DNA of 64,000 nt. Origin: an uncultured Verrucomicrobiae bacterium. Its GTDB lineage: Bacteria > Verrucomicrobiota > Verrucomicrobiia > Chthoniobacterales > JAFAMB01. Of this stretch, positions 3,107-29,077 are shown in pieces. Below the pieces are notes generated by a model, which saw nothing but the letters and a program-made list of their open reading frames with translations, searched no databases and had not been told where the DNA came from. The translations under genes and the position numbers were made by a program. Position 1 is the first letter of the stretch. Each line of letters starts with the position of its first letter. The stretch is taken from positions 1,312,001-1,376,000 of the forward strand of contig CAVXLD010000001.1 in assembly GCA_963762565.1 (NCBI GenBank), read 5' to 3'.

Positions 3107-3390
3107 GGTGGGGCGAGGCTCCGGAACTTTCCTTCCGGACGAGCAGGGCTGCCAAGGTTGTCGAATCTGTAGTATGCCGGGCCGCAGAGCTGCCGAGCCG
3201 TGGCCCAGCGTTCGGTATCGGCAAAGGATGGACGAGGCCAGATCGGACGCAGACTGCCCAATTCAAAGCGCTGGACGACGGCGGCGTGGTGGGCCCGCCT
3301 CGGCAGCGCTTTGACCCAAAACACAAAGTCTTCCTTCAATGTCGCATTCCCTGGGAAGTCGCCAAGGCCGTACCGGAGCCTCGCCCCACC
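3107..3390. repeat. Split-REP family B, copy 1
   Basis: Outer IR GGTGGGGCGAGGCTCC 3107-3122 / 3375-3390; inner IR GCTGCCGAGCCG 3189-3200 / 3296-3307. Confidence 0.85.
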
Positions 3391-3424
3391 GGCCTTGGGC
3401 ATCGCCGCACCGGGGAAGAAAAGT

Positions 3425-4384
3425 CTATTTTACTTCGTTTAGTCGTTCAGCCTGATTGAGGTTGTCGCTGGTGATCGCGATCGGAGTGAGCAGCTTTACC
3501 GGTTCGGCCGGTTTTTTGCCGTCGCGGAGATAGGCAACCAGCGTATCCAGAGCGCCCTTAACCTGCCCGCCGGGCATCTGCTCGATCGTGGCTGTCATGT
3601 TACCAGCCTTGATCTGGCCTAACGCTTCGGGGAGAGCGTCGAACCCGATGAGTTTTACCTTACCGACGAGGTTACGCGCTTTGAGTGCTTCAAGGGCGCC
3701 AAGCGCCATGTCGTCGTTTGCGCAGTTGATCACGTCTGGCGGCGTCTTCATACCGGCAAGGGCAGACTCCGTCATGCTCAGACCCTTTGCCCTATCGAAG
3801 GCGGCAGTATCTTCAAACACTATTTTGTATTTGTCTTTGGCTTGATCCAGAACGTTGTGCAGGCCCTTGTTGCGGTCGATAGCCGGACTCGAACCCGACT
3901 GTCCCTGGAGATTCATAACTGTGCAGCCGTTCGGAAACAGCTTTTCGATCAGCTCACCCTGCGCTTCGCCGCCTTTAACGTTGTCGGCTCCTACATGGGC
4001 AAGGATCCCAGGGACCTTGTTGACGCGGCGGTCGAACGTGACCACCGGAATCTTTGCGTCGACCGCTTCCTGTAATGCCGGCGCTAGAGCATCGGCGTCA
4101 TTCGGAGAGATGACGATCCCGTTGACACCCTTTGTAATCGCTGCCTCGATATCCGCCGTTTGCTTGGGCGAGCTGACTTGTCCATCGGAAACCAGCAGGT
4201 CGATGTCGCCAAGCTTAGCTGCCTCTGCTTTCCCCTGGTTAATGCAGTGTACGAAGAACGGGAATGTCAGACCGGGAACAGACATCAAGATAGTTAAGTG
4301 TTTCTCCGCTGCCTGTGCGGGACCGAATGCGACTAACGCAAGCCCAAGAGTCGCCGATAGCCCAATTTTTCTGAAGTATCTCAT
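3425..4384 (-). CDS. Sugar ABC transporter periplasmic binding protein (RbsB-like)
   Basis: Signal peptide; FPFF, VVTFDR, NDDMALGA, IGFDA motifs; operon with ATPase and permease. Confidence 0.92.
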   Translation of the reverse strand: MRYFRKIGLSATLGLALVAFGPAQAAEKHLTILMSVPGLTFPFFVHCINQGKAEAAKLGDIDLLVSDGQVSSPKQTADIEAAITKGVNGIVISPNDADALAPALQEAVDAKIPVVTFDRRVNKVPGILAHVGADNVKGGEAQGELIEKLFPNGCTVMNLQGQSGSSPAIDRNKGLHNVLDQAKDKYKIVFEDTAAFDRAKGLSMTESALAGMKTPPDVINCANDDMALGALEALKARNLVGKVKLIGFDALPEALGQIKAGNMTATIEQMPGGQVKGALDTLVAYLRDGKKPAEPVKLLTPIAITSDNLNQAERLNEVK

Positions 4385-4483
4385 AGGTGTTTTCTGACTT
4401 CTCGTCAGAATAAGTATTAGGGGGGTGTGCCTACGGGATTTAGAGATGTCCCGCAGAGCCAGAACGATGCTTCCATTCGAGTC

Positions 4484-4682
4484 GTGTTAACGTCAACACA
4501 AAATTGCTGCTTACGGCCGGACAGGTGGAGTCAATTGAAACCATTTTAAGAAAACAATTTCACCTAACTCGCCGGTTCTGGTGGGAGGTAAGACGAATAC
4601 GAGTGGAGGGGGATGGGGTAAACAGTTTCTCCGTTGATCAGTTTACATAAAGGCCGCGCAAACCATTGCGCAATCGATTGCG
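4484..4682. promoter_or_regulatory. Candidate LacI-family operators upstream of the sugar ABC operon
   Basis: CG-centred palindromes GTGTTAACGTCAACAC (4484-4499) and CGCAATCGATTGCG (4669-4682), plus related GCGCAAACCATTGCGC (4656-4671). Confidence 0.5.
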
Positions 4683-4976
4683 GTCAGGTTTAGGCTTTTT
4701 TCCTGCAAGTGTCAACGGTCATCGTTAACGATCGTAAACTCGAACCACCGAGTACAATCGTTTGCCCGGTGATGAAACGGCAAAGCGTGCCTTTGCCGGC
4801 TTGGCTCCCCGAAAACGCTCTTAAGCCTCGTATTGCGGGTACTGGAGTTAATTCCCTATCTGCTAGATTGGAGGTCGACGCGGTGAGCGCCGTCTTTGTC
4901 CCGGATCCCGAAGTGGATCTCTTCCTCGCCCAAGGAAGCATCTCCAACCCCCTAGTGTTCGCACGGTTGCAAATAG

Positions 4977-5190
4977 GGGAGGGCGCGCAGCCTGTCCGCC
5001 ATAGCTTTAGCGACGGAGGATCCCCGCACGCCGCGAGGACGTGCCTTAACCCAAAGGTGTATTTTCGTCCGAGGTCAAGACACGTCCTCGACTTCGGCAA
5101 CAAGCCGGATCGCGAGGATCCGACGTCGCCAACGCTTCTAAGAAAGACCTGCAGACAGAAGGCTATGTCGGACAGGCAGCGATCCCTCCC
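4977..5190. repeat. REP-doublet family A, copy 2, with nested hairpin insertions in both arms
   Basis: Reverse-complement homolog of 248-368, with inserts at 4989-5020 and 5119-5178. Confidence 0.85.
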
Positions 5191-5397
5191 AGGCGATGGG
5201 GCCGCACTCATTCCGAGGAAGGAGCGTCTGGTGAGCCTATTGGTGGTTTGTCTTTTCTGGGCCTGCGAAAAGTAGTATGTGTGTCGCGAATACTGATCCG
5301 GCCCGATGCGTCGAAACCTGGCGACTCTTCCGACGTCAAAAGGTTGAGAGCACGCTCGGTTCAGAAGCGATTCTCTAGCAGCACCTAAATTAATGTT

Positions 5398-5985
5398 ATG
5401 AAGTTTGTTATGAAGTTTAAACGGTTGTTATTTTCGATATCAGCCGCCTTGATTTTCCTGCTTTCGCCAAGCTCGAGTCTTGCCGGTTGGGGTGGCGGCT
5501 GGCACGGCGGAGGCGGTTGGGGCGGGCATGGCGGTGGTTGGCACGGAGGCTGGCATGGCGGCTGGCATGGCGGCTGGTGGCACGGTGGTTGGTGGCACGG
5601 CGGCCATTTTTATAATTGGGGTTGGTGGCCCGGCTACGGCTGGGGCTGGTGGGGGTGGGGCGGATGGTATCCCTACTGGGCTTGGGGCGAATATCCTTAT
5701 GGCTACTGGAATGGCGGTTACGGAAGCTACGGCGATAGCGGAGGTTATGGCGATAACGGAGGTTACGGAGGCGGCCACGGTGAGCCTCCGGGCGCCCAAA
5801 GTGAAACCTCAGCGATTCAATCCAGGCTTGCTAACCTCGGTTTCTATCATGGCCCGATCGACGGCAAGGTTGGCCCGGGTACAGAAAGCGCGCTCAAAGC
5901 CTTTCAGGCACGACATGGCTTGAGAGCTTCAGGCCAGATTGATGACGAGACATTGAACGCTCTCGGCTTAGCACAAGGGCAATAA
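5398..5985 (+). CDS. Secreted Gly/Trp/His/Tyr-rich protein with C-terminal peptidoglycan-binding domain
   Basis: Signal peptide; GGWH repeats; IQSRLANLGFYHGPIDGKVGPGTESALKAFQ..GL..SG PG_binding_1 pattern; start may be 5410. Confidence 0.85.
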   Translation: MKFVMKFKRLLFSISAALIFLLSPSSSLAGWGGGWHGGGGWGGHGGGWHGGWHGGWHGGWWHGGWWHGGHFYNWGWWPGYGWGWWGWGGWYPYWAWGEYPYGYWNGGYGSYGDSGGYGDNGGYGGGHGEPPGAQSETSAIQSRLANLGFYHGPIDGKVGPGTESALKAFQARHGLRASGQIDDETLNALGLAQGQ

Positions 5986-11521: not shown

Positions 11522-12293
11522 GGCCGTTTGTTCCCGCTCCTTGATCCTCATACCGGTCATGATGCCGGACCCAATCCATCAGATTGTGTGCCGGTCCATT
11601 CTCGTTGCGACCCTTTGGCAAGTGATCGAGATAGCCGTACACGCCTCCCACTAACTCACTGCCGCGGGCGTAGGCGGAATAGGTGTGGAAGATCTTACCG
11701 GCCGGGTTTCGATAAAACATACTGGTGCCCGGCAACTCATCTATGGCGAAGTCCTGGGTTTTGTAATTGTAATAGGCCTTGCCTCGGGCGATTTCGTCCT
11801 GGGTGAAGGACACATGATAATCGAAGTTAAAATCACTTCCGTACGACGAAACCCACTTGAAGGCCCATCCCATCCGTTTCTTAAATGCCTCGATCTTAGT
11901 TAACGGTGCACGAGAAACGACGACGAATGCGACATCGTGATGCTCCAGATGTACTACGATCCCATCGTAGTGATCGGCTCCGAAGGAACAACCCACACAG
12001 CCTTGTTCCCAGTCGGGACCCAGCATGAAGTGAACCACGATTAGTTGGCTCTTATCGCAGAACAAATCTGCCAGCGTCTGTTTCCCCGTGACTGTGTCGA
12101 AAAGGTAAGCCTTTTCGACCTTAACCCATGGCAGAGCGCGGCACTCTGCAAAAAGCCGGTCTTTTCGTCGAGTGAGGTCTTTTTCCTTTTCCAGCAAGGT
12201 CTTACGAGCTTCTAGCCACTGCTCTCGGGAAACCACGGGGTGAATGGAGAGATCTTCCGCCGATTCGAGTATCTGTGCTTCTATCGTCGTCAT
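11508..12293 (-). CDS. DUF899-family thioredoxin-like protein
   Basis: VVSREQWLEARKTLL..EK, LPWVKVEK.Y, GCVGCSF, HTYSAYARG, PKGRNE. Confidence 0.92.
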   Translation of the reverse strand: MTTIEAQILESAEDLSIHPVVSREQWLEARKTLLEKEKDLTRRKDRLFAECRALPWVKVEKAYLFDTVTGKQTLADLFCDKSQLIVVHFMLGPDWEQGCVGCSFGADHYDGIVVHLEHHDVAFVVVSRAPLTKIEAFKKRMGWAFKWVSSYGSDFNFDYHVSFTQDEIARGKAYYNYKTQDFAIDELPGTSMFYRNPAGKIFHTYSAYARGSELVGGVYGYLDHLPKGRNENGPAHNLMDWVRHHDRYEDQGAGTNGHETL

Positions 12294-12436
12294 ATCGTTG
12301 TTCTTTGATTCCTGGCGTTTGTTGAATGGTTTCGTTTTGGATTTCAAAGAAACGACGAATCAGAACTGTCGTTTTGGACAGGCTGGTCGATTTTTTTGGG
12401 CTGAATCTGGACGATTCCGGCGGTCATCCGCCGAAG

Positions 12437-12653
12437 GCCTGGAGGGGAGCCGCTTCGCAACGCGGCAGTTCTACCGAATGGCAGCAGGCGGCTCCCGAGC
12501 ACGGCCTCAGAGCTAGGCAGTTCTATAGCGGCTTTGCAAGTCGGTGCCTATTCCAGGCGCGTCATCCTGCATGGCAAACGCTGGGTAGTTCCCGGGAGCC
12601 GCCTGTTGCCATCCGATAGAGCTACCACCCTACAAAGCGGCTCCCCTCCAGGC
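12437..12653. repeat. Expanded-loop REP doublet family D, copy 1
   Basis: 57-nt arms GGAGGGGAGCCGCTT..GGCGGCTCCCG at 12441-12497 and inverted at 12593-12649. Confidence 0.88.
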
Positions 12654-12720
12654 GCTGGGCGTGCGACACCGCAGTGTTATCAGGAGGACGGGAACGATTC
12701 ACCTGGAGCGCTGTTTTGCT

Positions 12721-12760
12721 CGTTCCCGGCATTGTCGGCGTTCCCGGCGCTGTCGGCGTT
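12721..12760. repeat. 9-bp tandem array (AACGCCGAC/AGCGCCGGG on minus strand)
   Basis: CGTTCCCGGCATTGTCGGCGTTCCCGGCGCTGTCGGCGTT; related array at 25320-25355. Confidence 0.6.
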
Positions 12761-12762
12761 GT

Positions 12763-13371
12763 TCAACCCGCCTGAGCCCGCAAAATCTGGATCAGAAGCC
12801 GTAAACGTTCGGCGACATCCTGTGATTCCAGGAGTTTTTGTCGTGGCGCCGACTCATTAACAAAAGCAGCTCCTACCACGTCAGCCAGGACTTCCGGGTT
12901 ATCGATCTGATGCATCTGCTCCAGCAGATTCGCCGGCAACGGCAGCCCAAGTTGTTGAATCCGCACACAGAGTTCCTTGACTTTCTCGCTTAAAGCATCT
13001 GTTTCAACCGCGTTCCCGATTCGAGATTCGATTAGTTCGATCTCAGCGATCCGAAAGGGTTCCTCTTGGGTCCAATCCAGGATTTTAACCCGGGCCAAGC
13101 CTTGTAGAACCAGATTGGAAGTACCGTTCTCATTACCAACGCAAGCGCGGATTAACCCTACCCCGGCAACTGAACGCAAGTCTTCAACTCCTTTAGGTTC
13201 ACGTATACCTGCTTTTGCTGACGCAACAGAGAACATTCGCTCTCCAGTCAGGCAATGGCTTAACATCTGTCGATATCGGTTCTCAAAAATATGGAGCGGA
13301 AGCAGCGAATGCGGGAATAGCACCACATTCGGGAGCACCATTATAGGAACTTCGCGTGGGATACGAATCAC
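12763..13371 (-). CDS. Lon protease N-terminal substrate-binding domain protein (stand-alone)
   Basis: VLFPHSLLPLHIFENRYRQM motif; no AAA or protease domain. Confidence 0.9.
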   Translation of the reverse strand: MIRIPREVPIMVLPNVVLFPHSLLPLHIFENRYRQMLSHCLTGERMFSVASAKAGIREPKGVEDLRSVAGVGLIRACVGNENGTSNLVLQGLARVKILDWTQEEPFRIAEIELIESRIGNAVETDALSEKVKELCVRIQQLGLPLPANLLEQMHQIDNPEVLADVVGAAFVNESAPRQKLLESQDVAERLRLLIQILRAQAG

Positions 13372-13375
13372 GAGA

Positions 13376-14593
13376 TCAAGTCAGGCGAGGTAACCGTCGA
13401 GTGAGTTGATCAACATCCTTGTCTCCCCGGCCCGACAGATTGACCACTACGATTTGGTTTTCAGGCATTTCGTGAGCGTGCTTCACGACGTAAGCCAGCG
13501 CATGCGTCGATTCTAGAGCAGGCAAGATGCCTTCGGTCTTGGCCACGAGTTGGAACGCCTCTAGCACCTCATCGTCCGAGGCAAAATCGTAATGGACGCG
13601 GCCGATATCGTGTAGATAACTGTGCTCGGGCCCTACCGCAGCATAGTCAAGACCCGCCGAAATTGAATGGGTCAGCTGGATCTGGCCATCTTCATCGGAG
13701 AGCAAGTAGGTCTTAGTGCCTTGTAGCACGCCTAACCGCCCACCCTGAAACCGAGCTGCATGTTGCCCGGGTAAAATTCCCGTTCCGCCTGCCTCTACAC
13801 CGACCATAGCGACGTTTTCATCCTTCAGAAATGCATAGAACAAACCGATCGCGTTACTGCCTCCACCAACACAGGCCACCAGTAGGTCCGGAAGCTTTTC
13901 TTCAACTGCAAGAATTTGCCGGCGCGTTTCGTCCCCGATCACTCGATGGAAATCCCGTACCATCATCGGATAGGGATGTGGTCCGTAAACAGTGCCTAAG
14001 AGATAGTGGGTTGTGCGCACATTTGTCACCCAATCGCGCATCGCTTCGTTGATCGCCTCTTTTAAAGTGGCCTGTCCGACCGTAACCGGAACGACTTTGG
14101 CTCCCAGAAATTCCATCCGCGCCACATTCAACGCCTGGCGTTTCATGTCGGTCTCCCCCATGTAAACGACGCATTCCAGGCCGAATCGGGCAGCAACGGT
14201 GGCGGTGGCTACCCCATGTTGGCCGGCGCCGGTTTCGGCGATAAGTCTTTTTTTGCCCATTCTCACCGCCAATAGGGCTTGCCCAACAGCGTTATTGATT
14301 TTGTGCGCTCCGGTATGAAGCAAATCTTCGCGCTTAAAATAGATACGTGGCCCACCCAGCTTTTGGGTCAATCGCTCTGCGAAATAAAGTGGAGTAGGCC
14401 GGCCACAGAAAGTGCGTAGCAGCTCTTCCAATTGCCACCGAAATTGTGGATCTTTCTTTGCCCGCGCATATTCTTCTCGAAGTTGTTCAATCGCAGGCAT
14501 CAAGGTTTCTGGCACAAAAACGCCGCCGAAAACTCCGAAGCGTCCCCGCTCATCCGGCAGTTGGCTGAAATTAATCTGTACGTTCGGTTGCAT
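13376..14593 (-). CDS. trpB: Tryptophan synthase beta chain
   Basis: [49 protein letters not shown]. Confidence 0.98.
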
Positions 14594-14658
14594 GTCGCGG
14601 AATGCAGCGACGCACGCTTAAGGGCGGGAATCAAGTGCGAAAGGGTGGAGGGCGGTGG

Positions 14659-16013: not shown

Positions 16014-16022
16014 GCTCAGCGG

Positions 16023-17565: not shown

Positions 17566-17625
17566 CCACGTCAGGTTTACCTGATAAAGTGGCTCGCTCC
17601 TGTAGCTGAAGGCCCCCCGCCCTCT

Positions 17626-18042: not shown

Positions 18043-18179
18043 CAGCTAATCCCTTACCCTGAGCGCGACCATACAAATAGCAAGTTAGATTGAGAGTATA
18101 AGTTGAGACCTTTCCGTATCAATATCGTTAAAATCCTGTGATGGTGTTTGCGCCATTCTAGACTAAGATTAACGCCGCC

Positions 18180-19670
18180 ATGTCTTCTGAACTTCTCACC
18201 ACGAATCGTAAGGCCCTGACCATTAATCTGGCTGAGTCTAAATATGGGACGTTCGCCGAAATCGGAGCTGGACAGGAGGTTGCACGCCATTTTTTCCAGG
18301 CGGGGGGAGCCGCCGGCACAGTGGCGAAATCGATCTCCGCGTATGACATGAAATTCAGCGACGCGATCTATGGCAAGTCCGCTCGCTATGTTTCCCGGGA
18401 ACGACTCGGCTTGATGCTAGAGCACGAGTATGAGTTACTGCTGGAACGCCTCAAAGCCCTGCGGGGCGATCAAACGGAGTTTTTTGTTTTTGGCGACACG
18501 GTGGCGGCCAGAAATTTCAAGGGCACGAACGAATGCCATGGATGGCTGGGAATCCGGTTTCAGGGGCAGCCCAATTCGGAGCCGAGCGATATCGTGATGC
18601 ACGTTCGGATGTGGGACAAAGAAAATCTCCTGCAACAACAGGCCTTGGGCATCATCGGCGTCAATCTGATTTATGGCGCTTTTTTTTATCTAACCGATCA
18701 AGACAAATTTATTCAATCCCTGGCTGATAACCTTACCGTGGATCGGATTGAAGTCGATATGATCACCTTCAGCGGCCCGCTGTTTGTGAATGTCGACAAT
18801 CGGTTAATGAGCCTGAAGCTGGTTGAGTATGGGCTCACCAATGCGGTGTTGTTCAACCCCGATGGCGCGGTGATGCAACCATCCGAAGTACTGCACAAGA
18901 AAACGATCGTCGTCGAAAGAGGCAGTTTCCGCCCAGTTACCCTGGTGAACGACGATATGCTCAAATGCGCGCTAGCTCAGTTTTTGCAGGAACCCGCTGT
19001 GGTGGGTAGAGAAACCGTGGTCTTGATGGAGCTGACGATGCATAATTTGCTGGCCTCAGGCAATCTTGACCACGAAGACTTCCTGGCGAGAGTAGATACT
19101 CTCGCCGGCATCGGATACAATGTTCTGATCTCGGGTTATTTTGAGTTTTTCCGGCTTACTTCCTACTTGCGCCGTTATACGAAGGAAATGGTTGGGGTTG
19201 TAATGGGCATAAATAACCTGCTGGAGATCTTTAATGAGAAGTACTACGACAGCCTCGATGGCGGCATTCTGGAAGCGGTGGGCCGTCTCTTTAAAGGGTC
19301 GACCAAGCTCTATGCTTACCCCATGAGAAAGAGCGCCTACGACCGTTATTGCCTAAAGGCTGATTGTCCCGTGCCGGATTCCAAGGCTCTGGCACTGCCT
19401 ACAGATGTCTGGATCAATGCGACCAATCTACAGGTCGCGCTTAATCTCAGGAATCTTTACGCTCATCTTATGGAGAACCGTTATATTGCTCCTATCGTCG
19501 GCTTCGATCCCTCGATTATGGACATTTTCTCGCGTGACGTCCTGGCTAAGATTCAAAACGGCGGGAGTGGCTGGGAGAGCGCTGTACCAGCAAAAGTAGC
19601 GGCTCTAATTAAGGAGCGGCATCTATTCGGCTACCAAAAATCGTCCGCGCGCGAGCTCCATCCGGTTTAA
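18180..19670 (+). CDS. Conserved cytoplasmic protein with a nucleotidyltransferase-like C-terminal half (family often labelled TonB-dependent receptor)
   Basis: YGTFAEIGAGQEVAR, ERGSFRPVT motifs; no signal peptide or beta-barrel pattern. Confidence 0.75.
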   Translation: MSSELLTTNRKALTINLAESKYGTFAEIGAGQEVARHFFQAGGAAGTVAKSISAYDMKFSDAIYGKSARYVSRERLGLMLEHEYELLLERLKALRGDQTEFFVFGDTVAARNFKGTNECHGWLGIRFQGQPNSEPSDIVMHVRMWDKENLLQQQALGIIGVNLIYGAFFYLTDQDKFIQSLADNLTVDRIEVDMITFSGPLFVNVDNRLMSLKLVEYGLTNAVLFNPDGAVMQPSEVLHKKTIVVERGSFRPVTLVNDDMLKCALAQFLQEPAVVGRETVVLMELTMHNLLASGNLDHEDFLARVDTLAGIGYNVLISGYFEFFRLTSYLRRYTKEMVGVVMGINNLLEIFNEKYYDSLDGGILEAVGRLFKGSTKLYAYPMRKSAYDRYCLKADCPVPDSKALALPTDVWINATNLQVALNLRNLYAHLMENRYIAPIVGFDPSIMDIFSRDVLAKIQNGGSGWESAVPAKVAALIKERHLFGYQKSSARELHPV

Positions 19671-19802
19671 TCCAGAGATGGAGCATCAGTAAGAAGAGGT
19701 GGATAATTCTTTAGGAAGTTACAGGTTGAAATCAGTCTTGCTCCGATTGGTCAATCATCATTTCCTAAGTCGTAGCCAGGTAGTCCGACTACGCTTTAGT
19801 TG

Positions 19803-20531
19803 ATGAACCCCCTAGAACAACGCATCGGATATAAGTTCCGAAACTCGCTGCTTTTGGCCGAAGCGCTCACTCACCCGAGCCTCGGCCATGAAACACAGCG
19901 ACATCATTTCGATAATCAAAGGCTGGAGTTTCTCGGTGATGCAGTGCTCCAATTGATCTTTACCGAGCATCTCTTCCGACTATTCCCGCATTTTAGCGAG
20001 GGACAGCTTACCAAGCTGCGGTCGCGTCTCGTCTCGCGCGAAGGTCTTAAGGTTCACGCCTTGAGTATCGGCTTGGGCACTTATTTGATGATGGGTCGAG
20101 GAGAAGAGGCCAGTGGCGGCCGGGAAAGAGCCTCGATCCTGGCGGACGCCTTCGAAGCGCTAGTGGGTGCAATGTACCTCGATAGCAACCTCGAGGTCGT
20201 ACGGCGTTTTATACTTGAGGAAGCACACGAAGACATCCAACGCCTGGCTTTACAGCCTTTAGAAGTGAATCCTAAAGGCCAGCTGCAAGAGATTCTACAA
20301 GCGATCTCGGCTAAAAGCCCGGTCTATGAGATTATTTCGCAAACCGGACCCGAACATCAAAAACTGTTTATCGCTAAAGTGATTTGGGACAACGCCGAGC
20401 TCGGTTCCGGCGAGGGTTCAAGTAAGAAGCAGGCCGAAACGGCTGCCGCCCTGGCCGCTCTGCGATCGCGGCTCTGGGAAAAGGACTCTTCCGCCGCTGC
20501 TACCCCAGAAACGGAATCGGCCGGTTCGTAG
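19803..20531 (+). CDS. rnc: Ribonuclease III
   Basis: NQRLEFLGDAVL, ADAFEALVGAMYLD, C-terminal dsRBD. Confidence 0.97.
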   Translation: MNPLEQRIGYKFRNSLLLAEALTHPSLGHETQRHHFDNQRLEFLGDAVLQLIFTEHLFRLFPHFSEGQLTKLRSRLVSREGLKVHALSIGLGTYLMMGRGEEASGGRERASILADAFEALVGAMYLDSNLEVVRRFILEEAHEDIQRLALQPLEVNPKGQLQEILQAISAKSPVYEIISQTGPEHQKLFIAKVIWDNAELGSGEGSSKKQAETAAALAALRSRLWEKDSSAAATPETESAGS

Positions 20532-21615
20532 AGCGTAGATACACCAGGCCGACTCCAAGCAGGAAGAACACAACTGGCGGTGTCCAAGCGGCTACCAGCG
20601 GGGAAACTCGTGAACCTGCTCCTAACGCGGCAAAAATTTGTCCCGCGCCGAAAAGCGCTAGAAACAGAAACAAGCCTGCTGCCACACCCCCAAGCGCGCC
20701 GCGCCGGGAGAAAATGACACAAAGCGGGCTGGCGATTAGCACTACCACCAGAACATTAACCGGCACAGCAAAACGGTCCCAAAACTGGGTCCGATATTCA
20801 GCCAGTACGCTGCTAGGAAAATCCGAGTTGACCCTTAAGTAGTGCTGAAGCTCAGGCACTGTCATCATCCGGCCGTTGAGCGCTGAGCTACCTAATTGCC
20901 AGATCGTTTCTGACCAATCTGGTTCTTCTTTTTTGTCGAAGAATTCTTCGTCCGTAACATTCCCGTCTGCATCTACATATGAGATCTTGCCGTCGTACAA
21001 GATCCACTTGTTTCCATGATGAATGGCGGATGCTGCGTACGCGACCCACTGGATAACCTCGTTGTCGTCCTGCTGGGTGATTTCCAAGCCTTTGACCTCG
21101 CTCGTTTTGGTATTGAGCAACTGGATAAACCAGATTCGATGCTGTCTCCGATTAACGTAAACGTGGCCATCCAGATACGTGACCTTAGAATGTCCCTTGG
21201 AAACTTCGTCCATCCGGTTGTTCATCACGTAGTACCCCGTAGGCGCCAACTCGTAATTCAGATATCCGCAGACGCAGCTGAGAACCAATCCAAAGACGAT
21301 TAAGGGCATTAGCACTCTGGGCACACTTCTCCCGGCGCCCAGCATGGCCACGATCTCGTTTCGGCGCGACATCCTGGTCAGGACGTAGAGCAGACCCAGT
21401 AGGACTGCGAGCGGCATCCAGAGGACCAGCATGTACGGCACCTGCTGCAGGTAGTACAGTAGGATGACCCGGAACGAGAGGTGCAGTTCCGCAAACCTTG
21501 GGCCCTCGACGCCAAGCTGGTAGACCAACCAAATGCCCAAGATCCCGAAGATCGCGTAGAAAAAGAACAATAAAAAGTTCTTGAGCAAATAGCGATCTAA
21601 GAGTCCGAACAACAC
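20500..21615 (-). CDS. LptF/LptG-family LPS export permease
   Basis: LLDRYLLKNF, RRNEIVAMLGAG, AAWTP; 3+3 TM layout; overlaps rnc 3' end by 32 nt. Confidence 0.9.
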   Translation of the reverse strand: MLFGLLDRYLLKNFLLFFFYAIFGILGIWLVYQLGVEGPRFAELHLSFRVILLYYLQQVPYMLVLWMPLAVLLGLLYVLTRMSRRNEIVAMLGAGRSVPRVLMPLIVFGLVLSCVCGYLNYELAPTGYYVMNNRMDEVSKGHSKVTYLDGHVYVNRRQHRIWFIQLLNTKTSEVKGLEITQQDDNEVIQWVAYAASAIHHGNKWILYDGKISYVDADGNVTDEEFFDKKEEPDWSETIWQLGSSALNGRMMTVPELQHYLRVNSDFPSSVLAEYRTQFWDRFAVPVNVLVVVLIASPLCVIFSRRGALGGVAAGLFLFLALFGAGQIFAALGAGSRVSPLVAAWTPPVVFFLLGVGLVYLRSTNRPIPFLG

Positions 21616-21631
21616 GGGGGTAAAATAGGAA

Positions 21632-21892
21632 GGAGTTGAAGGAGTTCAAGGAGTTGGTAGGGCGAGGCTCCCGAACGACCTAAACCGGTTAGCGGGGATA
21701 CTGATGCCCTATTTTCTAAACGCGTAGTTACTACTGGTGACCCGCCGAGCCGTGTCCTGCGCGACCCACGGCTCGGCGGGCCGCTCGACATAGCGTCGCG
21801 AGATTCTGGAGCGGGAGCCCGGGCTTCGCGCCCTGTTCAAGGTTCTTCAGGAGCCTCGCCCTACCGAACTCCTTGAACTTCCCGAACTCCTT
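21632..21892. repeat. Split-REP family B, copy 3 (21656-21865), wrapped by inverted 9-bp GGAGTTCAA arrays
   Basis: 16-bp outer IR, 69-nt inserts, 14-bp inner IR, 12-nt centre. Confidence 0.9.
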
Positions 21893-21912
21893 GCTGATTA
21901 TGCCCGGGGGAT

Positions 21913-22671
21913 ATGCTTGCTAAACGAATCATTCCTTGTCTCGATGTGACCGAGGGCCGCGTCGTGAAAGGCACGAAATTTGTACAACTCCGGGATGCTG
22001 GTGATCCGGTGGAATGTGCAAAAGAGTACAATCGGCAAGGCGCTGACGAGCTGGTTTTTCTCGATATCACTGCCAGTTCTGATCATCGGAGAACAATGAT
22101 CGATGTGGTGGAACGCACAGCCGAACAATGTTTTATGCCGCTTACCGTCGGGGGCGGCATTCGGAGTCTGATCGATGTCCGCGATATGTTGTTGGCGGGA
22201 GCAGACAAGGTGAGCATGAACACGGCAGCGATCCAACGGCCCACGCTGATCAGTGAAGCGGCTGAAGCGTTTGGTGTTCAATGTATTGTGGTGGCGATCG
22301 ACGCCAAGAAAGAGCCCACAGGCGGTTGGAGGGTTTATACTCATGGCGGCCGCAAACCGACCGAGCTTGACGCGATCGAATGGGCCTTAACTGCGTCAAG
22401 GCTTGGCGCAGGGGAAATATTACTTACGAGTATGGATGCAGACGGGACTAAAGATGGTTACGATCTGGCGCTGACCGCAGCGGTCAGCTCAGCAGTCACG
22501 ATTCCCGTCATCGCCAGCGGGGGCGCGGGTAGTTTGGAACATTTGGAGAAAGTACTTCGCGAGGGACACGCGGACGCCGTGCTGGCCGCCAGCATATTTC
22601 ATTTTGGCGAGTATTCCGTAGCGGACGCCAAACGGTTTCTTTCCGAACATGGAATTCATGTACGGCTGTGA
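21913..22671 (+). CDS. hisF: Imidazole glycerol phosphate synthase cyclase subunit
   Basis: [43 protein letters not shown]. Confidence 0.98.
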
Positions 22672-22680
22672 AAGAAGTTC

Positions 22681-22910
22681 GGTAGGGCGAAAACCTCGGC
22701 GCGCCGAGGACGCGACCATTACTCTTGGGCGGATCGCGCCGGGTTTGAGCCGCGCCGTGCGGCTAAGCTCATCCGAGATCGCCCTGAACCTGGATGCTTG
22801 GTTCGCGTCCGTCGAGGGAGAACGCCACACATCGGGTCGCGGCTCAAACCCGGCGCGGGAAGATCAAGTTAGAAACAATGCGCTCGGCGCGCCGAGGTTT
22901 TCGCCCAACC
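22681..22910. repeat. GTAG-type nested inverted element, family C
   Basis: 28-bp outer IR 22681-22708 / 22883-22910; perfect 20-bp inner IR 22735-22754 / 22838-22857. Confidence 0.88.
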
Positions 22911-22914
22911 GCCC

Positions 22915-24606
22915 TTGAACTACCTCTGGGACCTTACCGCAGCCGCTGATCGCAGCGACCTGGCTGCACTCGCGGCGGAACTTCGGCTACCGATTTCGAT
23001 TCTTCGGCTCTTGAGTCGCAGAGGATTTCAAGATGCCGAGGCGATTCGCAGTTTTCTATGGCCACGGCTTCGTGAACTGTCTGACCCCTTTCTCCTGGCA
23101 GGCATGAAGGCGGCCGTCGAGCGTATCTTTCAGGCGGTTGATCGACAGGAACGGATCGTTCTATACGGAGATTACGACGTTGACGGGATCACTTCGCTAA
23201 CCTTGCTCGCCCGCGTGTTGCAAGCCTATGGAGCCAGTCCTGCTTTATTTCTGCCGATGCGGGTTGAGGAAGGGTATGGCTTGACGGCAGACGGTGTTTC
23301 CCGGTGTCTTCAAGCGCATCACCCTCAATTGCTGATTGCGTTGGATTGCGGCACCTCATCGGCTGAGCGCATCACGGAGATTGAAGCGACTGGAATCGAC
23401 GTCGTGGTAATCGATCACCACGAGGTTCAACATGCCCCGCCTAAATGCCACGCCTTCATCAATCCGAAGACTGGGACCGACCACAGATATTTCTGTACGG
23501 TGGGGTTGGTATTCAAGTTATGCCACGCCCTACTCAAAGAGCGACGAATCCCCGATCTCGATTTGAAACAGTACCTCGATCTCGTTGCCATCGGCACCAT
23601 TGCTGATCTGGTTCCGTTGGTCGCCGAAAATCGGCTCCTTGTCTATCATGGGTTGAAACAGCTCGAAACCACCCAGTGGGTTGGTGTTAAAACTTTGATG
23701 CGGGTCGCTGGAATCAACTTTCCGGTACGGCCGGACGATGTGGGGTTTCGCCTCGGGCCGCGACTAAACGCAGCCGGTCGTCTCGGCTTAGCGGAAGCTG
23801 CACTGAACTTACTCCTGACCTCCGACGATGACGTCGCAGCTTCTCTATCCGCCGAACTTGATCAACAAAATCGAGCTCGCCAGGAACTGGAACAACAGAC
23901 GTTCGATGCCGCTTGCCGGCTTCTGGAACAGGATCCGGATTTGGCGTCTCATTGCGCGATCGTGGTAGGTGAGGCCGGCTGGCATCCCGGGGTGGTCGGG
24001 ATTGTAGCGGCTCGTCTAGTTCGTCAGTATTATCGTCCGGCCTTGGTTATCGGATTTGACCAGGAAGGGGTCGGTAAAGGTAGCGGCCGCAGCATCCCTG
24101 GATTTTCATTGGTGCAAGCGCTAGACGGGTGCTGCGGTTCACTGACCCAGTACGGCGGCCACGAAATGGCGGCTGGGTTTTCACTACCTTTTGAGCAACT
24201 TGCTGTTTTTGCAGGCGCGTTCAGAGCGGTTGCCAAAAATACGCTCAGTGCGGAACAACTATTGCCCAGGCTGCAGATCGACGCGTTAGTTAACGGGAGC
24301 GAAATCAACTACGATTTCCTGGTCGCGCACGAACGGTTGCAACCTTTTGGGCTGGGGAACTGGCAGCCATTGTTGCTATTGCAACGAGGAGAACCAACCG
24401 GCGACATAAAAGTCTTGAAGGAAAAACATCGGGTCTTTGGGCTACGCCATAACGGTCGCCTGTTACGCGCCATCGAGTTTAATTTTAGTGAACCATTGCC
24501 GGCGCCGCCTTGGGACGTCGCGTTTTATCTGGAGCCCGCAGTTTATCGCGACCAGATTCAAATCCAGCTTAGAGTCGTAGCGATCAGGACATCAGGGCCG
24601 GGATAG
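22915..24606 (+). CDS. recJ: ssDNA-specific exonuclease RecJ
   Basis: YGDYDVDG, LDCG, IDHH, GPRLNAAGR, GSGRS, GGHEMAAG. Confidence 0.97.
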   Translation: MNYLWDLTAAADRSDLAALAAELRLPISILRLLSRRGFQDAEAIRSFLWPRLRELSDPFLLAGMKAAVERIFQAVDRQERIVLYGDYDVDGITSLTLLARVLQAYGASPALFLPMRVEEGYGLTADGVSRCLQAHHPQLLIALDCGTSSAERITEIEATGIDVVVIDHHEVQHAPPKCHAFINPKTGTDHRYFCTVGLVFKLCHALLKERRIPDLDLKQYLDLVAIGTIADLVPLVAENRLLVYHGLKQLETTQWVGVKTLMRVAGINFPVRPDDVGFRLGPRLNAAGRLGLAEAALNLLLTSDDDVAASLSAELDQQNRARQELEQQTFDAACRLLEQDPDLASHCAIVVGEAGWHPGVVGIVAARLVRQYYRPALVIGFDQEGVGKGSGRSIPGFSLVQALDGCCGSLTQYGGHEMAAGFSLPFEQLAVFAGAFRAVAKNTLSAEQLLPRLQIDALVNGSEINYDFLVAHERLQPFGLGNWQPLLLLQRGEPTGDIKVLKEKHRVFGLRHNGRLLRAIEFNFSEPLPAPPWDVAFYLEPAVYRDQIQIQLRVVAIRTSGPG

Positions 24607-24768
24607 AGGCGGTTTTTCGTCCTCGTGCTCGATGAATCGACGCGCGTCCGCAGAATACGGATGGGATCCGCCTTCGCCAAGCCCACCGCGGGACAAGCTC
24701 GATAGGGCTAATGTGACTTATGGGTCATGTCGGTTCGCATTCATCGAGGACGAGGACGAAAACCGCCT
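24607..24768. repeat. Family E element, copy 2, with nested cargo
   Basis: AGGCGGTTTTTCGTCCTCGTGCTCGATGAAT / ATTCATCGAGGACGAGGACGAAAACCGCCT; encloses GGATCCGCCTTCGCCAAG..GGACAAG and a degenerate 9-mer array. Confidence 0.8.
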
Positions 24769-25201
24769 ACCGTGCCACACGAGACGACGGTTCTCGGTGC
24801 ATTTGCGCTCCGACAAACTCGACCAGTTGCTTTGGAAAGAACGGCTTCCTTAATAGCAGCTGTTTTTCGACCATCACCGCGGCACGAGGATCTGACTCAG
24901 ATAATGCCCCGGTTATAAACAAGACGGGCAGGCCGGGGGCGAGCTGATGAATCTTCTCTGCTAGTTCCAGGCCATCAACGGGCCCGGGCATAACGATGTC
25001 GGTAAGCACGAGCTCGATTTCGGATTGTCGCTGTTCCAAGATCTTCCAGGCATCCTCCACTGTGGCTGCAGTGATGACCCCATAGTTCGCCAGCTGCAGG
25101 ACGCGCTCGATGTACTGCAAAATAAACGGTTCGTCATCAGCCACCAGGATGAGTGGTTGGTTCAGATTGCGAGCGAAACCGGGTTGGACTGCACGTGCCA
25201 T
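24767..25201 (-). CDS. Single-domain response regulator
   Basis: ILVADDE, LTDIVMPG, FITG, KPF. Confidence 0.92.
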   Translation of the reverse strand: MARAVQPGFARNLNQPLILVADDEPFILQYIERVLQLANYGVITAATVEDAWKILEQRQSEIELVLTDIVMPGPVDGLELAEKIHQLAPGLPVLFITGALSESDPRAAVMVEKQLLLRKPFFPKQLVEFVGAQMHREPSSRVAR

Positions 25202-25319
25202 GATTTCAAGAACTCTGCTCTCTTATATTTTTCGCGAATAATTGTGGAAAATATAGCATTTTCTTGTGGTTAGTTTGCACTCTCGGTGGCGACAAAGTCC
25301 GACATCACGGACAAAGGAA

Positions 25320-25355
25320 AACGCCAGGAGCGCCGAGATCGCCGTGAACGCCAAG
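25320..25355. repeat. 9-bp tandem array
   Basis: AACGCCAGG AGCGCCGAG ATCGCCGTG AACGCCAAG. Confidence 0.6.
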
Positions 25356-25382
25356 GGCAGAGCCGATGGCGGAGTTGAGTCT

Positions 25383-26372
25383 TTATTTTTGCGGGACAGC
25401 CGCCCCGGCGCGAGCCAAAGTCGGTATCCGCAACATTGCTCCGTAGCAGTTAAAGACCCGCCGGCTACCAAACGTCAGGTCGTGCGCCTGGGCTAGACTT
25501 TCGACCATGCGTAAACCAATCCCGGTTCCCGTTTCAGTATTCGTCTTGGTGCCTACCCGATTCAGAACAAACAGGGTCAATGCTTCATTGCAGGCGCGTG
25601 ATCGCAACCGGATCTCCCCTACCCCGTGAGAAAAAGCGTTGGAGAGCAGATTGTGAAGGATCAATCCGAAGATCTTTTCATCCAACTCGGCTTCCAACTC
25701 TGGCGGTAGGTCAATAGAAAGCTTGCGCTGTTGGGCCGCGGCCTGGAGCTCGTAAGGCGCCACTATCGCCTGCACAGACTTGGCGACCTTTTGCCTGGTT
25801 TTAACCGGACGAATTTTGTGTTCGGCGACTTTCGCAAGGAAAAGCGCAGTATCGACATACTCGGTCAACCGGCGGATTTCTCCCGTCATAAAGTCCAGAA
25901 ACTGCGGATCAAGCTGCTTCGCCGCATAGTCGAGATGTAGCTGAAGGGATGTGAGTGGGCCCCGCAGCTCATGAGCGACTTTGGCTGCATAGTGATCCAG
26001 ACGAGCCTGGCTCTCCCTTAAAACTTCCATTAGATCGGTAATTTCTGCGACCAGCTTCTGATACTCTCGATCGCGGTTCAAGGATCCCAATGCCAACAGG
26101 TCCGAGCTCGATATTCTCCGTTCCGCCAAGGCGTTGGCCACCTGCTCAACCGGGCGATTGATTCGGCGAGTGACAATCAAGACCGGGATGGCAACAACCC
26201 CGGCGGTCACCGCCAAAGAACTAACCCAGATTTTGAGCAACTCAGGCCCGAGTTGCTCCCAGTGATCCGTTGTTTGACTAAGCCAGAGCCAAGTAATGGC
26301 CAGAGATATCGCCACGCCGATTCCAGCGGTCGCCACGCAGGCCAAAGTTACGGCTACTTTCGTGGATCTCAT
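25383..26372 (-). CDS. Membrane histidine kinase with a short or degenerate ATPase domain
   Basis: Two TM helices, AHELRGPLT H-box, NLLSNA N-box, GTGIGL G2; G1/F boxes not evident. Confidence 0.85.
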   Translation of the reverse strand: MRSTKVAVTLACVATAGIGVAISLAITWLWLSQTTDHWEQLGPELLKIWVSSLAVTAGVVAIPVLIVTRRINRPVEQVANALAERRISSSDLLALGSLNRDREYQKLVAEITDLMEVLRESQARLDHYAAKVAHELRGPLTSLQLHLDYAAKQLDPQFLDFMTGEIRRLTEYVDTALFLAKVAEHKIRPVKTRQKVAKSVQAIVAPYELQAAAQQRKLSIDLPPELEAELDEKIFGLILHNLLSNAFSHGVGEIRLRSRACNEALTLFVLNRVGTKTNTETGTGIGLRMVESLAQAHDLTFGSRRVFNCYGAMLRIPTLARAGAAVPQK

Positions 26373-26378
26373 CGCGGA

Positions 26379-26486
26379 AGACAGAATTCACCACAAAGAC
26401 ACGGAGGCCACAAAGGACCAATCCAAGATGAGGCTTTTTGGTTTTTGTTCTTTGTGACCTCTGTGTCTCTGTGGTGAATTCTGTCT
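26379..26486. repeat. Inverted pair of 9-bp CACARAGRC arrays (empty element)
   Basis: AGACAGAATTCACCACAAAGACACGGAGGCCACAAAG / CTTTGTGACCTCTGTGTCTCTGTGGTGAATTCTGTCT. Confidence 0.85.
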
Positions 26487-26490
26487 CCTA

Positions 26491-27555
26491 CTAAATCGAG
26501 GTTTCGCGTTTGGTTGAGCGCAGACGGATGGTTTTCTGAACGAGATCGTGGTAAGCCTCGATCATTCGTACCGTGCGGCTGCGAGCACGCATCAGAACGG
26601 AATGAGTGACCGCGGTATGACCACGCACCCGGACACCCCGCAACAATGGATTGTCGCTAATGCCTGTGGCGCAAAAGATGATGTTATCGCCCTGGGCGAG
26701 ATCCTTGGCATAGAAGACCTTGCCCAATTCGCTTCGGTATCCCGCCTCCATCACTGCTTGCTCTTCCGCGCTGTCTCGGGGCCACATCACGGTCTGTAAA
26801 TCGCCGCCCAAACAGCGAATTGCGGCCGCAGCCAGTACCGCTTCGGGAGACCCGCCAATTCCGACATAGAGATCTACGCCACTGTCAGCTATCGAGGGCG
26901 CTATCGCTGCAGTGATATCGCCATCTGAAATCATGCGCACCATGGCGCCGGTAGAACGGACTGCTTCCACCAGTTTCTGGTGGCGGGGCCGGTCCAGAAT
27001 AACGACCGATAGATCCTGGACCCTTTTACGCAGGGCCTTGGCAACCAGGGGAATAATTTCTTCGATCGGGTTCAAGATTGAGATCGTCTGAATCCCGGTC
27101 CGTTGCATATAGCGCACCACCTTCAAACCATAGGCCAGCTTCATCATGTAGAACGTGGGGATATCTTTCAACGAGACCCCAATATCGTGTTCGGGAGAGG
27201 CGGCGGCGATGCAGCAGATCGAACCCGGGAGCCCTTTTGAGACATTGGTGGTGCCGTCAATCGGATCGAGCGCCAAATCGAATTTATGGCTGCCAGGCGA
27301 CCAGGTTCCAAGGTGTTCTCCTTTAAATATCCCGGGAGCATTATCCTTGATCCCCTCTCCAATCACCACCTCTCCACAAATGTTCATGAGGTCGAACATA
27401 CCGCGGATCGCATCGCAGGCCGCAGCGTCGGCCTTCTCCTTTTCACCCCGTCCGATCCACGGCAGAGTGTTCAAAGCGGCCGCCTCGGTTGCCCTCAGGA
27501 AGTCGATCTCGATGATGCGTTCGTAATCTTCGTACGGTTGCTGGTGGGAGCGCAT
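26491..27555 (-). CDS. glpX: Fructose-1,6-bisphosphatase class II
   Basis: ATEAAA, VVIGEG, DPIDGT, LDRPRH, ISDGD, GGSPE, ATGISD; start at MRSHQQ. Confidence 0.95.
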   Translation of the reverse strand: MRSHQQPYEDYERIIEIDFLRATEAAALNTLPWIGRGEKEKADAAACDAIRGMFDLMNICGEVVIGEGIKDNAPGIFKGEHLGTWSPGSHKFDLALDPIDGTTNVSKGLPGSICCIAAASPEHDIGVSLKDIPTFYMMKLAYGLKVVRYMQRTGIQTISILNPIEEIIPLVAKALRKRVQDLSVVILDRPRHQKLVEAVRSTGAMVRMISDGDITAAIAPSIADSGVDLYVGIGGSPEAVLAAAAIRCLGGDLQTVMWPRDSAEEQAVMEAGYRSELGKVFYAKDLAQGDNIIFCATGISDNPLLRGVRVRGHTAVTHSVLMRARSRTVRMIEAYHDLVQKTIRLRSTKRETSI

Positions 27556-27563
27556 GAGACAGA

Positions 27564-27728
27564 ATGACAGATGACAAATGACAGATGACAAATCGAATAG
27601 CCAATTGCAAATCGCCACGCGTCGCGAATAGGCGATAGCCACGCTGTCGCGAATAGTCGATAGCCAATCAGGAGATTGCCTTGGCTATTGGCTATTCAAT
27701 TTGTCATTTGTCATCTGTCATTTGTCAT
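27564..27728. repeat. Nested inverted heptamer arrays (outer ATGACAR x4, inner AATAGCC type)
   Basis: ATGACAG ATGACAA x2 - AATAGCC AATTGCA AATCGCC ... GGCTATT x2 - TTGTCAT TTGTCAT CTGTCAT TTGTCAT. Confidence 0.9.
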
Positions 27729-27756
27729 TTTTCCGAAACTGTGGTTTTCAGACAGA

Positions 27757-28509
27757 GTGAATCCCACAGTGAACCCTACCCGCGTTATCTTTTGGAACGA
27801 ATACATTCACGAAAAAAAGGACCCAGCGGTTGCAGCTGTCTATCCGCAAGGAATCCATGCTCAGTTAGCGACCGCTTTTGCTCATGACTCCGCGTTGATC
27901 TGCGAAACGGCGACGCTGGAGGAAAAAGAGCATGGCCTATCGGTCGACCGATTGGACGCTACCGATGTCCTGGTTTGGTGGGGGCATCTAGCGCACAAGC
28001 AAGTTGAGGATGAGATCGTGGAACGGGTCCGAAAGCGGGTTCTGGAAGGAATGGGACTAGTGGTGCTGCACTCAGGGCACTATTCGAAGGTCTTTCAAAG
28101 ATTGCTCGGGACCACCTGTTCGTTGGGTTGGCGTGAAGCCGGTGAAAAAGAGCGGGTCTGGGTCTGCCAGCCAGGGCACCCCATTGCCCGCGATCTACCG
28201 GCTTACTTTGAGATCCCACACGAGGAAATGTATTCGGAGCCTTTTGGTATCCCTAATCCGGACGAATTAGTTTTTATTTCCTGGTTCCAAGGTGGAGAAG
28301 TCTTTCGATCGGGCTGCTGTTGGCGGCGTGGCGCTGGAAAGATCTTTTATTTCCGGCCAGGTCACGAAACCTTTCCCACATACCGGCAACCAGAGGTTCT
28401 GCAAGTGATCCGAAACGGCATCGGATGGGCGACTCCGGATAGACCACGCTGGATTGATGCATGCCCGAATATAAAGGTCTCGCCAGAGGGAATTAGGCAG
28501 GAACGCTAA
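27757..28509 (+). CDS. thuA: Trehalose utilisation protein ThuA family
   Basis: [42 protein letters not shown] start at 27757 or 27769. Confidence 0.92.
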
Positions 28510-28518
28510 CGTTCCTAA

Positions 28519-28588
28519 ATGACAAAGTGACAAATGACAGATCGCCGCGAGACTACGGCGCTTGGCGGGAAAATTTGTCATCTGTCAT
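28519..28588. repeat. Inverted ATGACAR heptamer arrays (empty)
   Basis: ATGACAA-A-GTGACAA ATGACAG ... TTGTCAT CTGTCAT, between convergent stop codons. Confidence 0.8.
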
Positions 28589-28590
28589 TC

Positions 28591-28809
28591 TCAACGTCTG
28601 AACAGCCAGCTCAATAACGTGAGGACGATGCTGATTAAAATGCACGTCACCAGCGGGAAATAGAAAGAGAAGTTCCCTTTTTGAACCGAGATATCGCCCG
28701 GCAGACGCCCCATCCAGCCAAACCAGCCAGGGAACTTCCACAAAAGCGCGCCTCCGATCGCAAGAACTATCCCGACGATCATCGCGATTCTGCCGATTTC
28801 CTGCATCAT
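28591..28809 (-). CDS. DUF2905 small membrane protein
   Basis: GRLPGDI....NFSFYFPLVTCILISIVL. Confidence 0.92.
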   Translation of the reverse strand: MMQEIGRIAMIVGIVLAIGGALLWKFPGWFGWMGRLPGDISVQKGNFSFYFPLVTCILISIVLTLLSWLFRR

Positions 28810-28824
28810 AGGAAATAAAGGGGA

Positions 28825-29077
28825 AGGAGTTCAGGAGTTCAAGGAGTTGGTAGGGCGAGGCTCCCGAACGGCCCAAGCCTGTTCGCGGGGATACTGATGC
28901 CTCATTTCTAAAGGTGCAGTTACGACTGTTGACCTGCCGAGCCGTGCGCTGCGCGACCCACGGCTCGGCGGGCTGCTTGACGTCGCACCGCGAAATCCGG
29001 GACGGAACATCGGGCTCCGCGAACTGTTGAAGGTCTTTCGGGAGCCTCGCCCTACCATCTCCTTGAACTCCTCGAAC
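28825..29077. repeat. Split-REP family B, copy 4 (28849-29056), wrapped by GGAGTTCAA arrays
   Basis: 16-bp outer IR, 68-nt inserts, 14-bp inner IR, 12-nt centre; alignable end to end with copy 3. Confidence 0.9.

Follow-up and report, generated by a model that had tools for sequence, protein, structure and literature searches.

The window analysed in this study is a stretch of 64,000 nucleotides (C1:1312001-1376000) from the genome of an uncultured Verrucomicrobiae bacterium, which has a size of 6.1 Mb, 15 contigs, and a G+C content of 54%. It contains four palindromic elements resembling repetitive extragenic palindromic (REP) sequences, all of which are intergenic, lying between open reading frames (ORFs). 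The 12-mer GGGCGAGGCTCC was found in eight copies forming four convergent pairs, while 0.64 copies were expected from shuffled sequences, and none of the 100 shuffles reached eight. Each element comprises two arms in inverted orientation around a centre, and an arm consists of an outer block, a filler of about 70 nt, and an inner block. All four elements were located where an earlier note on this DNA had placed them as split REPs with inserts of fixed length.

Element 1 (3107-3390) starts with an outer block (3107-3122), a 69-nt filler (3123-3191), and an inner block (3192-3200), which are separated by the centre (3201-3295) from the right inner block (3296-3304), a 70-nt filler (3305-3374), and the right outer block (3375-3390). 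Its right inner block, GCCGAGGCG, carries one mismatch, and a minus-strand ORF lies on either side of the element. Element 2 (14711-14971) includes the left outer block (14711-14726), filler (14727-14796, 70 nt), and inner block (14797-14805), the centre (14806-14877), and the right inner block (14878-14886), filler (14887-14955, 69 nt), and outer block (14956-14971). In element 3 (21656-21865), the outer block (21656-21671), a 72-nt filler (21672-21743), and the inner block (21744-21752) precede the centre (21753-21768), which is followed by the inner block (21769-21777), a second 72-nt filler (21778-21849), and the outer block (21850-21865). Element 4 (28849-29056) is arranged in the same order, with the left outer block at 28849-28864, filler at 28865-28935 (71 nt), inner block at 28936-28944, and centre at 28945-28960, and with the right inner block at 28961-28969, filler at 28970-29040 (71 nt), and outer block at 29041-29056. 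A filler was taken as everything between GGCTCC and GCCGAGCC, giving left/right lengths of 69/70, 70/69, 72/72, and 71/71 nt for elements 1-4. The lengths reported earlier (66/67, 67/66, 69/69, and 68/68) were thereby reproduced with a constant difference of 3 nt, and a centre of 17-21 nt by the filler-based measure corresponds to the 12 nt of the first count.

Element 4 is a recent duplicate of element 3; the duplication takes in flanking words, and the blocks and flanking words of the two copies are almost identical. According to our own count on the alignments, about 13 substitutions and one gap separate the left fillers of the two elements over 72 nt (~81% identity), compared to about 22 substitutions and one gap for the right fillers (~68% identity). 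Both elements are enclosed by mirrored arrays of short words of the GGAGTTCAAGGAG type, situated at 21620-21655 and 21866-21895 and at 28813-28848 and 29057-29080, respectively. In four congeners, the site of element 3 is occupied by a different palindromic family within the same mirrored GGAGTTCAAGGAG words. As these words are retained in the four congeners around a different inner element, the shell that they form seems to predate its content. Mirrored words of the GGGCGAA type were observed around element 2 (14660-14710 and 14972-15030). In four soil metagenome runs, the contigs over positions 12000-31000 of the window break at the repeat blocks, and the fillers had no usable cover among the matches shown.

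The census of the whole genome was based on exact motifs, under which badly altered copies stay hidden. The outer 12-mer was detected in 481 exact copies, corresponding to ~480 arms in 297 loci. In 394 of them, GCCGAGCC is located 65-74 nt downstream of the outer block, with a mode of 70-71, a mean of 70.7, and a standard deviation (sd) of 1.54 nt. The remaining outer blocks comprise 4 with a distance within 60-81 nt, 10 with other distances (1, 38, and 95-163 nt), and 73 without GCCGAGCC within 300 nt; outer and inner blocks are adjacent, as in a compact state, at one of the 481. The genome-wide distribution of insert lengths, which had been proposed as a check, is therefore narrow. The arms form 134 clean convergent pairs and ~32 pairs with one inexact arm, and divergent pairs never occur; arm pairs 0.4-5 kb apart are also present. 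Single arms number ~120, the inner block being intact in 89. The free variation of the centres noticed in the window extends to the genome: 66 of the 134 clean pairs have a centre of 17-21 nt that extends the inner blocks into a GC-rich hairpin of ~14 bp, and in the others the centre measures 24-146 nt. The GTAG and GTGG heads are about equally frequent (12-mers GCCTCGCCCTAC and GCCTCGCCCCAC, 239 and 240 copies), and the terminal inverted repeats of the elements are 16-18 nt long.

With genes taken from crude ORF-based calls, 261 of the 297 loci lie outside genes. The elements were found in 82 convergent, 139 tandem, and 36 divergent gaps, compared to 779, 2048, and 785 such gaps in total; they thus favour convergent gaps, i.e., gene ends, and avoid divergent ones. 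Single arms had no sense bias relative to the neighbouring genes (21 in the same sense and 18 antisense).

The fillers have a weak common consensus at their edges, cGAA.gaCC ... ttcgCArrG on the 5' side and aGGCCgaaa.gC.c on the 3' side. The GAA-like insert start described earlier is real, since filler positions 1-3 are G in 91%, A in 84%, and A in 86% of 393 arms genome-wide. The middle part (~28 nt) lacks a consensus and, with a positional identity of 0.286 against 0.251 expected from composition, appears to be close to saturation. No BLAST relative among the other fillers was obtained for 289 of 397 fillers, and the other 108 had one; at an alignment length of at least 45 nt, 358 are singletons and ~39 fall into small clusters. 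Judged by alignment, the left and right fillers of an element lack complementarity: the gapped identity of the left filler to the reverse complement of the right one averaged 0.55 in 134 pairs, and that of unrelated elements was 0.51. Left and right arms are coupled only at filler positions that adjoin the blocks, which may simply reflect subfamily membership, and the positional mutual information within fillers consists mostly of subfamily signatures and alignment slip. Searches of the fillers against their own genome outside exact arms yielded 41 short hits; the long ones recur at a few places and look like degenerate arms with inexact blocks. Because the edges keep a weak common consensus, the fillers look like the saturated decay of one ancestral loop. 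A coding role of the filler was dropped by eye, since lengths of 69-73 nt are all common and no reading frame can be kept. A subfamily with other filler edges (AAAACGTGAC ... GCAGCATG) was observed in L031, L034, L040, L080, and L088 and among the arms of this genome whose filler starts with A. Its fillers are shorter, reaching 64-67 nt in the congeners and averaging 67.6 nt (n = 9) in the A/ATG subclass of this genome.

Within subfamilies, defined by the first base and the last three bases of the filler, the sd of length decreases to 1.0-1.2 nt. A total of 332 substitutions and 21 gaps (18 of 1 nt and 3 of 2 nt), or one gap per 15.8 substitutions, were counted in 30 recently duplicated filler pairs. 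A neutral random walk with these indel values and 1.2 substitutions per site resulted in an sd of 2.76 nt, with 90% of lengths within 4 nt. The observed variance is therefore about 3-fold tighter than the neutral simulation, and about 6-fold within subfamilies, given an indel rate that was drawn from surviving copies and may be an underestimate. The claim of the earlier note that length rather than sequence is constrained stands in so far as the spread is below that of the neutral walk, but the excess is modest and no ruler is needed for it. These data point to a real though modest constraint with some stabilising loss of off-length copies. The family shows that a narrow length distribution is possible without a strong ruler, which calls for caution with claims of 'fixed length, free sequence'.

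The blocks are much better preserved than the fillers. The 12-mer has 86 one-mismatch copies versus 35 expected (~51 above background), and its two-mismatch copies are at background level; the inner 9-mer of the 481 arms is exact in 383, with one mismatch in 39 and two mismatches in 9. At two metagenome loci (L179 and L191), elements of the family occupy the position of element 2 with identical blocks and diverged fillers. The gapped identity of the fillers of these positional relatives is 0.43-0.58, the background being 0.49-0.53, and the fourfold sites of the neighbouring gene are 0.46-0.63 identical.

The sites themselves are poorly conserved between species. For 48 congener elements whose flanks map to this genome, the family was present at 9 of the sites (~1 in 5). 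When both flanks were required, 30 sites could be mapped; the outer block was found at 5 of them (6 under a looser window), other high-copy repeat families at 7, and none of five tested motifs at 18, where five gaps are only 32-49 nt long. The 14 fillers at shared sites have a mean identity of 0.589 versus a background of 0.532, and 5 of them exceed the 95th percentile of the background. A contig of a nearly identical strain from another metagenome-assembled genome (MAG), whose flanks match this genome at 97-99% identity, deviates by ~240 nt at one arm; the arm is complete on the contig and is represented in this genome by only ~45 nt with an altered outer block.

The earlier observation that removing the insert leaves a compact REP-like hairpin was borne out by an exact-pattern scan of one genome per species. 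The compact form GG(G/T)AGGGCGAGGCTCC-Y-GCCGAGCCG, in which both blocks recur without a change of order or orientation, was revealed in Fuerstiella, Pirellulaceae, Phycisphaerales, and Gemmataceae (Planctomycetota among them), Armatimonadota, and a few Verrucomicrobia; lone matches in other phyla may be due to chance. It is mostly organised in direct tandem arrays with 7-45-nt spacers. Because this form exists in other genomes, the two blocks can be regarded as halves of a real REP-like unit; we are not aware of a published name for the compact repeat, though no search aimed at one was made. The scan also returned the split form, its filler edges unchanged, in MAGs labelled Verrucomicrobiota or Chthoniobacterales, which are five congeners. 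All six genomes of the genus have it, with 37 to 398 arms (the low counts coming from fragmented MAGs) and roughly 1,500 arms over the six species, as do 2 of 37 other genomes of the family (three copies each), but it is missing from all 120 genomes sampled elsewhere in the phylum. The compact form is present in all five genomes of the sister genus g8 (1-13 copies), in one genome of the genus g10, and as a single copy each in this genome and in one of the congeners. This distribution is most simply read as that of an old, widespread compact unit, with the split version having originated or multiplied in the ancestor of the genus. Typical split elements were also seen on a contig of a MAG labelled Actinomycetota (L078) and of a MAG labelled Alphaproteobacteria (L051); the former is probably a misbinned contig of this species because its flanks are 97-99% identical to this genome.

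The central hairpin of element 3 (21740-21781) has a predicted folding energy of -20.7 kcal/mol as DNA (z -4.9), and the whole of element 4 folds at -66.9 kcal/mol (z -8.05) as single-stranded DNA (ssDNA). The real sequences of 66 elements reach lower folding energies than chimeric combinations of left and right arms (-122 vs. -113 kcal/mol). In the sole structure that RNAalifold predicts for 49 arms of six species, GGC..GGC (outer block) is paired with GCC..GCC (inner block), and a GA/GA step lies in the middle of the stem. The block-to-block pairs are invariant in 49 of 49 arms, so this stem gains no support from covariation.

Taken together, the elements are probably genus-specific, very high-copy palindromic repeats of the REP type, which are non-autonomous and contain a passive filler. 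Each arm represents a REP with a GTAG or GTGG head and the stem halves GGCGAGGC and GCCGAGCC, which could pair through 3 bp, a G.A/A.G step, and another 3 bp. About 71 nt holds these halves apart, creating a loop of ~74 nt (filler plus TCC), and two arms stand tail to tail around the GC-rich hairpin of ~14 bp. In this arrangement one strand could therefore fold as a long hairpin with the outer and inner blocks paired and two bubbles of ~70 nt. The blocks would be the working parts, serving either as stems or as targets of a protein that acts in trans, and the filler would be a passive spacer derived from one founder loop. Its length may be held by the rarity and small size of indels and probably also by the loss of copies with drifting spacing. 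The elements would thus be non-autonomous, mobile or unstable DNA moved by an enzyme encoded elsewhere.

Several results weigh against this interpretation. The cognate REP-associated tyrosine transposase (RAYT), which the earlier note recommended looking for, was not found beside the blocks. The genome contains 12 Y1_Tnp matches, five of them of RAYT size, and none of the 12 loci lies within 4 kb of an arm. Blocks within 1.5 kb were likewise missing at all 23 Y1_Tnp loci of the five congeners and at all 29 best loci, one from each of 29 relatives. Of ~41 Y1_Tnp loci in nine genomes with an abundance of the compact form, 2 have blocks, on one side only and 0.5-1.1 kb away. Altogether, none of ~100 Y1_Tnp loci in the sampled genomes is bracketed by blocks within 1.5-kb flanks, and neither a RAYT nor another Y1 transposase was found to adjoin the blocks. 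There is also a tension between turnover and filler similarity, as recent gain of most sites would predict more than 108 of the 397 fillers to resemble a source copy. Purely selfish copying followed by decay fails to explain intact blocks in copies whose fillers are saturated; some maintenance in place, by selection or conversion, would therefore be needed. Finally, the stem register with the G.A step is a prediction only, and the nearest-neighbour folds of the compact copies choose other registers and are unexceptional (z -0.6 to -1.0).

A classical pair of RAYT and REP doublet forming a hairpin (REPIN), in which one Y1 (IS200-like) domesticated transposase of the genome recognises the head and stem and replicates the doublets, is possible but doubtful. 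The GTAG/GTGG head, the tail-to-tail doublet, the long predicted hairpin, and the five RAYT-size genes among the Y1_Tnp matches agree with it, as does the statement of Bertels and Rainey 2011 (PMC3116915) that the REPIN spacer matters mainly via its length and hairpin capacity. However, the blocks bracket none of the Y1_Tnp loci surveyed, and the RAYT-size genes at C7:408582-409345, C3:712345-713185, C3:55303-56078, and C1:118899-119543 are each bracketed by their own low-copy repeats, of the GTCCCTACGGGAC type (~25-38 copies) or the CCGCCCTGAAAGGGCGG type (~17-22 copies), for example, with which they look like ordinary REPIN-RAYT pairs. Nor does the high proportion of singleton fillers leave a master sequence, and the lack of complementarity between the two fillers of an element also disagrees with a classical REPIN. 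A measured spacer, for which a protein of the host or the element, or the geometry of an extruded cruciform, requires half-stems ~70 nt apart and length is selected copy by copy, serving the host as, e.g., topological or architectural sites, is less likely and in our view improbable. It would account for the excess of length tightness over the neutral simulation, the intact blocks at every locus, and the weak correlation between the lengths of the two arms of an element (r 0.28). The best hint that spacing matters comes from a second palindromic family, GAGGGGAGCCGC ... GCGGCTCCC (392 outer blocks and 158 convergent pairs genome-wide), which has different blocks and also peaks at 69-71 nt (174 arms). 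Yet the same family tolerates 34-35 nt (127 arms) and 57-58 nt (16 arms), which argues that 70 nt is not obligatory, and the excess tightness is modest and relies on an indel rate taken from surviving copies. Furthermore, the AT periodicity of the fillers showed excess power at 6, 8.5-9, and 10 against mononucleotide shuffles and no clean helical-repeat signal, and poor conservation of sites between species would be odd for a host function tied to loci. It is similarly improbable that ~300 loci keep their blocks by selection or directed repair while a trans-acting protein or complex measures ~70 nt between the half-stems. Such a measurement would explain the 69-71-nt spacing common to two families with different blocks, and the elements would then be either chromosomal sites of a novel kind, measured and forming bubbles, or substrates for a hitherto undescribed ssDNA machinery other than a neighbouring RAYT.

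Active diversification, in which the fillers in the bubbles mutate far above ordinary DNA or are rewritten at each move so that young copies look unrelated, appears very unlikely. It would fit the fast turnover of sites combined with the large share of fillers lacking a detectable relative, the divergence of the fillers of elements 3 and 4 next to their almost identical blocks and flanking words, and the near-background identity of fillers at orthologous positions. The divergence of those orthologues is, however, within reach of the neutral level implied by the fourfold sites, and 5 of the 14 are clearly above background, as slow decay in place predicts. The low sharing of sites can be explained by loss rather than gain, and no mechanism or enzyme for rewriting is in sight. 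The proposal of the earlier note that the inserts are a ruler-measured cargo or a structured ssDNA or RNA guide found no support, and a family of structured small RNAs or guide ssDNAs presenting a variable loop on a constant stem is close to refuted. Constant handles flanking unique sequences of fixed length would suit such guides, but in folding the fillers do not surpass dinucleotide shuffles (mean z of -0.03 in a sample of 150 and of -0.14 for random genomic 71-mers), and their inner helices have mean pair probabilities below 0.1. No covarying pairs were detected by RNAalifold in the 49 arms, and the pattern resembles the decay of one ancestor, which the earlier note had itself set against its proposal. 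Rfam gave no match, either at the gathering threshold or with E values up to 10, single arms lack an orientation bias, and the fillers match nothing elsewhere in the genome except the apparent degenerate arms. Phage and plasmid collections gave no match to element 3, the only one of the four elements searched. A candidate filler hairpin CGAA...TTCG, spotted by eye, was paired in 43% of cells and could not be told apart from shuffles, and ARAGORN, applied to positions 1-32000 of the window for a tRNA-like structure, found nothing.

According to the usual view, REPs and REPINs are small hairpins copied by a neighbouring domesticated transposase and decaying once immobile. The elements described here depart from it in having stem halves ~70 nt apart, ~480 copies with letter-perfect blocks and randomised DNA between them, and no transposase beside any examined copy. 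If the blocks are maintained in place, the family would offer a clean natural test of upkeep by the host, by conversion, or by the repeat's own replication. The bacterial interspersed mosaic elements (BIMEs) of E. coli are mosaics of inverted REPs at gene ends with linkers of set length classes; these linkers are conserved in sequence, and some contain an IHF site. The present elements share with BIMEs the inverted REPs and the location at gene ends, but their variable stretch is internal to each REP and lacks sequence conservation. From the compact repeat, with its adjacent blocks, loop of a few nucleotides, and direct tandem arrays, they differ by tail-to-tail pairing and 70-nt fillers. The GTAG-tagged REPs surveyed by Di Nocera et al. 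2013 (PMC3733652) have stems of 5-13 bp and loops of 2-20 bp (Table 1), and repeats with unusual loops are said there to have been discarded. The article also describes the GTAG-20 repeats of the verrucomicrobium Opitutus terrae, which are mostly GTGG-headed, and dimer spacers that can differ in sequence yet keep similar lengths. Common features are the GTAG/GTGG head by a GC-rich stem, the high copy number, the intergenic location, and the dimers, which there are tail-to-tail or head-to-head and possibly form one large stem-loop; the ~74-nt loop inside each REP is different. The REPINs of Pseudomonas fluorescens SBW25, as described in the source cited above (PMC3116915), are also inverted REP doublets with invariant 16-mers at both ends, a long predicted hairpin, and a less conserved spacer whose length matters. 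Unlike those REPINs, whose spacers pair and show compensatory changes, which exist in many nearly identical copies, and which flank a RAYT gene, the present elements have two fillers that are unrelated except at the edges, almost every filler is unique, and no flanked RAYT was found in the sampled genomes. What is new in relation to these systems is a REP/REPIN-type repeat whose giant loop is constant in length and free in sequence and which belongs to one genus of soil Verrucomicrobia of the Chthoniobacterales type. No paper on split REPs in Verrucomicrobia was found in a limited literature search, and unpublished status is not claimed.

In the window, the second family is represented by its 34-nt class at 12442-12648 and 30149-30348, where GAGGGGAGCCGC, a 34-nt filler, and GCGGCTCCC are followed by their mirror image. 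In its 70-nt class, the fillers are recognisably alike and belong to two arm types, as judged by eye from the first 100 matches listed. The fillers of the two families resemble each other in ACGACC and GGCCGAAA, but not collinearly, and a shared filler origin was discounted. A third high-copy hairpin repeat, CGGCCTCGCAAGCGAGGC (~440 copies), forms a tandem array at C1:532729-532927 directly downstream of a 352-aa ORF with a Y1_Tnp domain, which is bracketed by the 15-nt inverted repeats AGGGTCACGTCTTAA.

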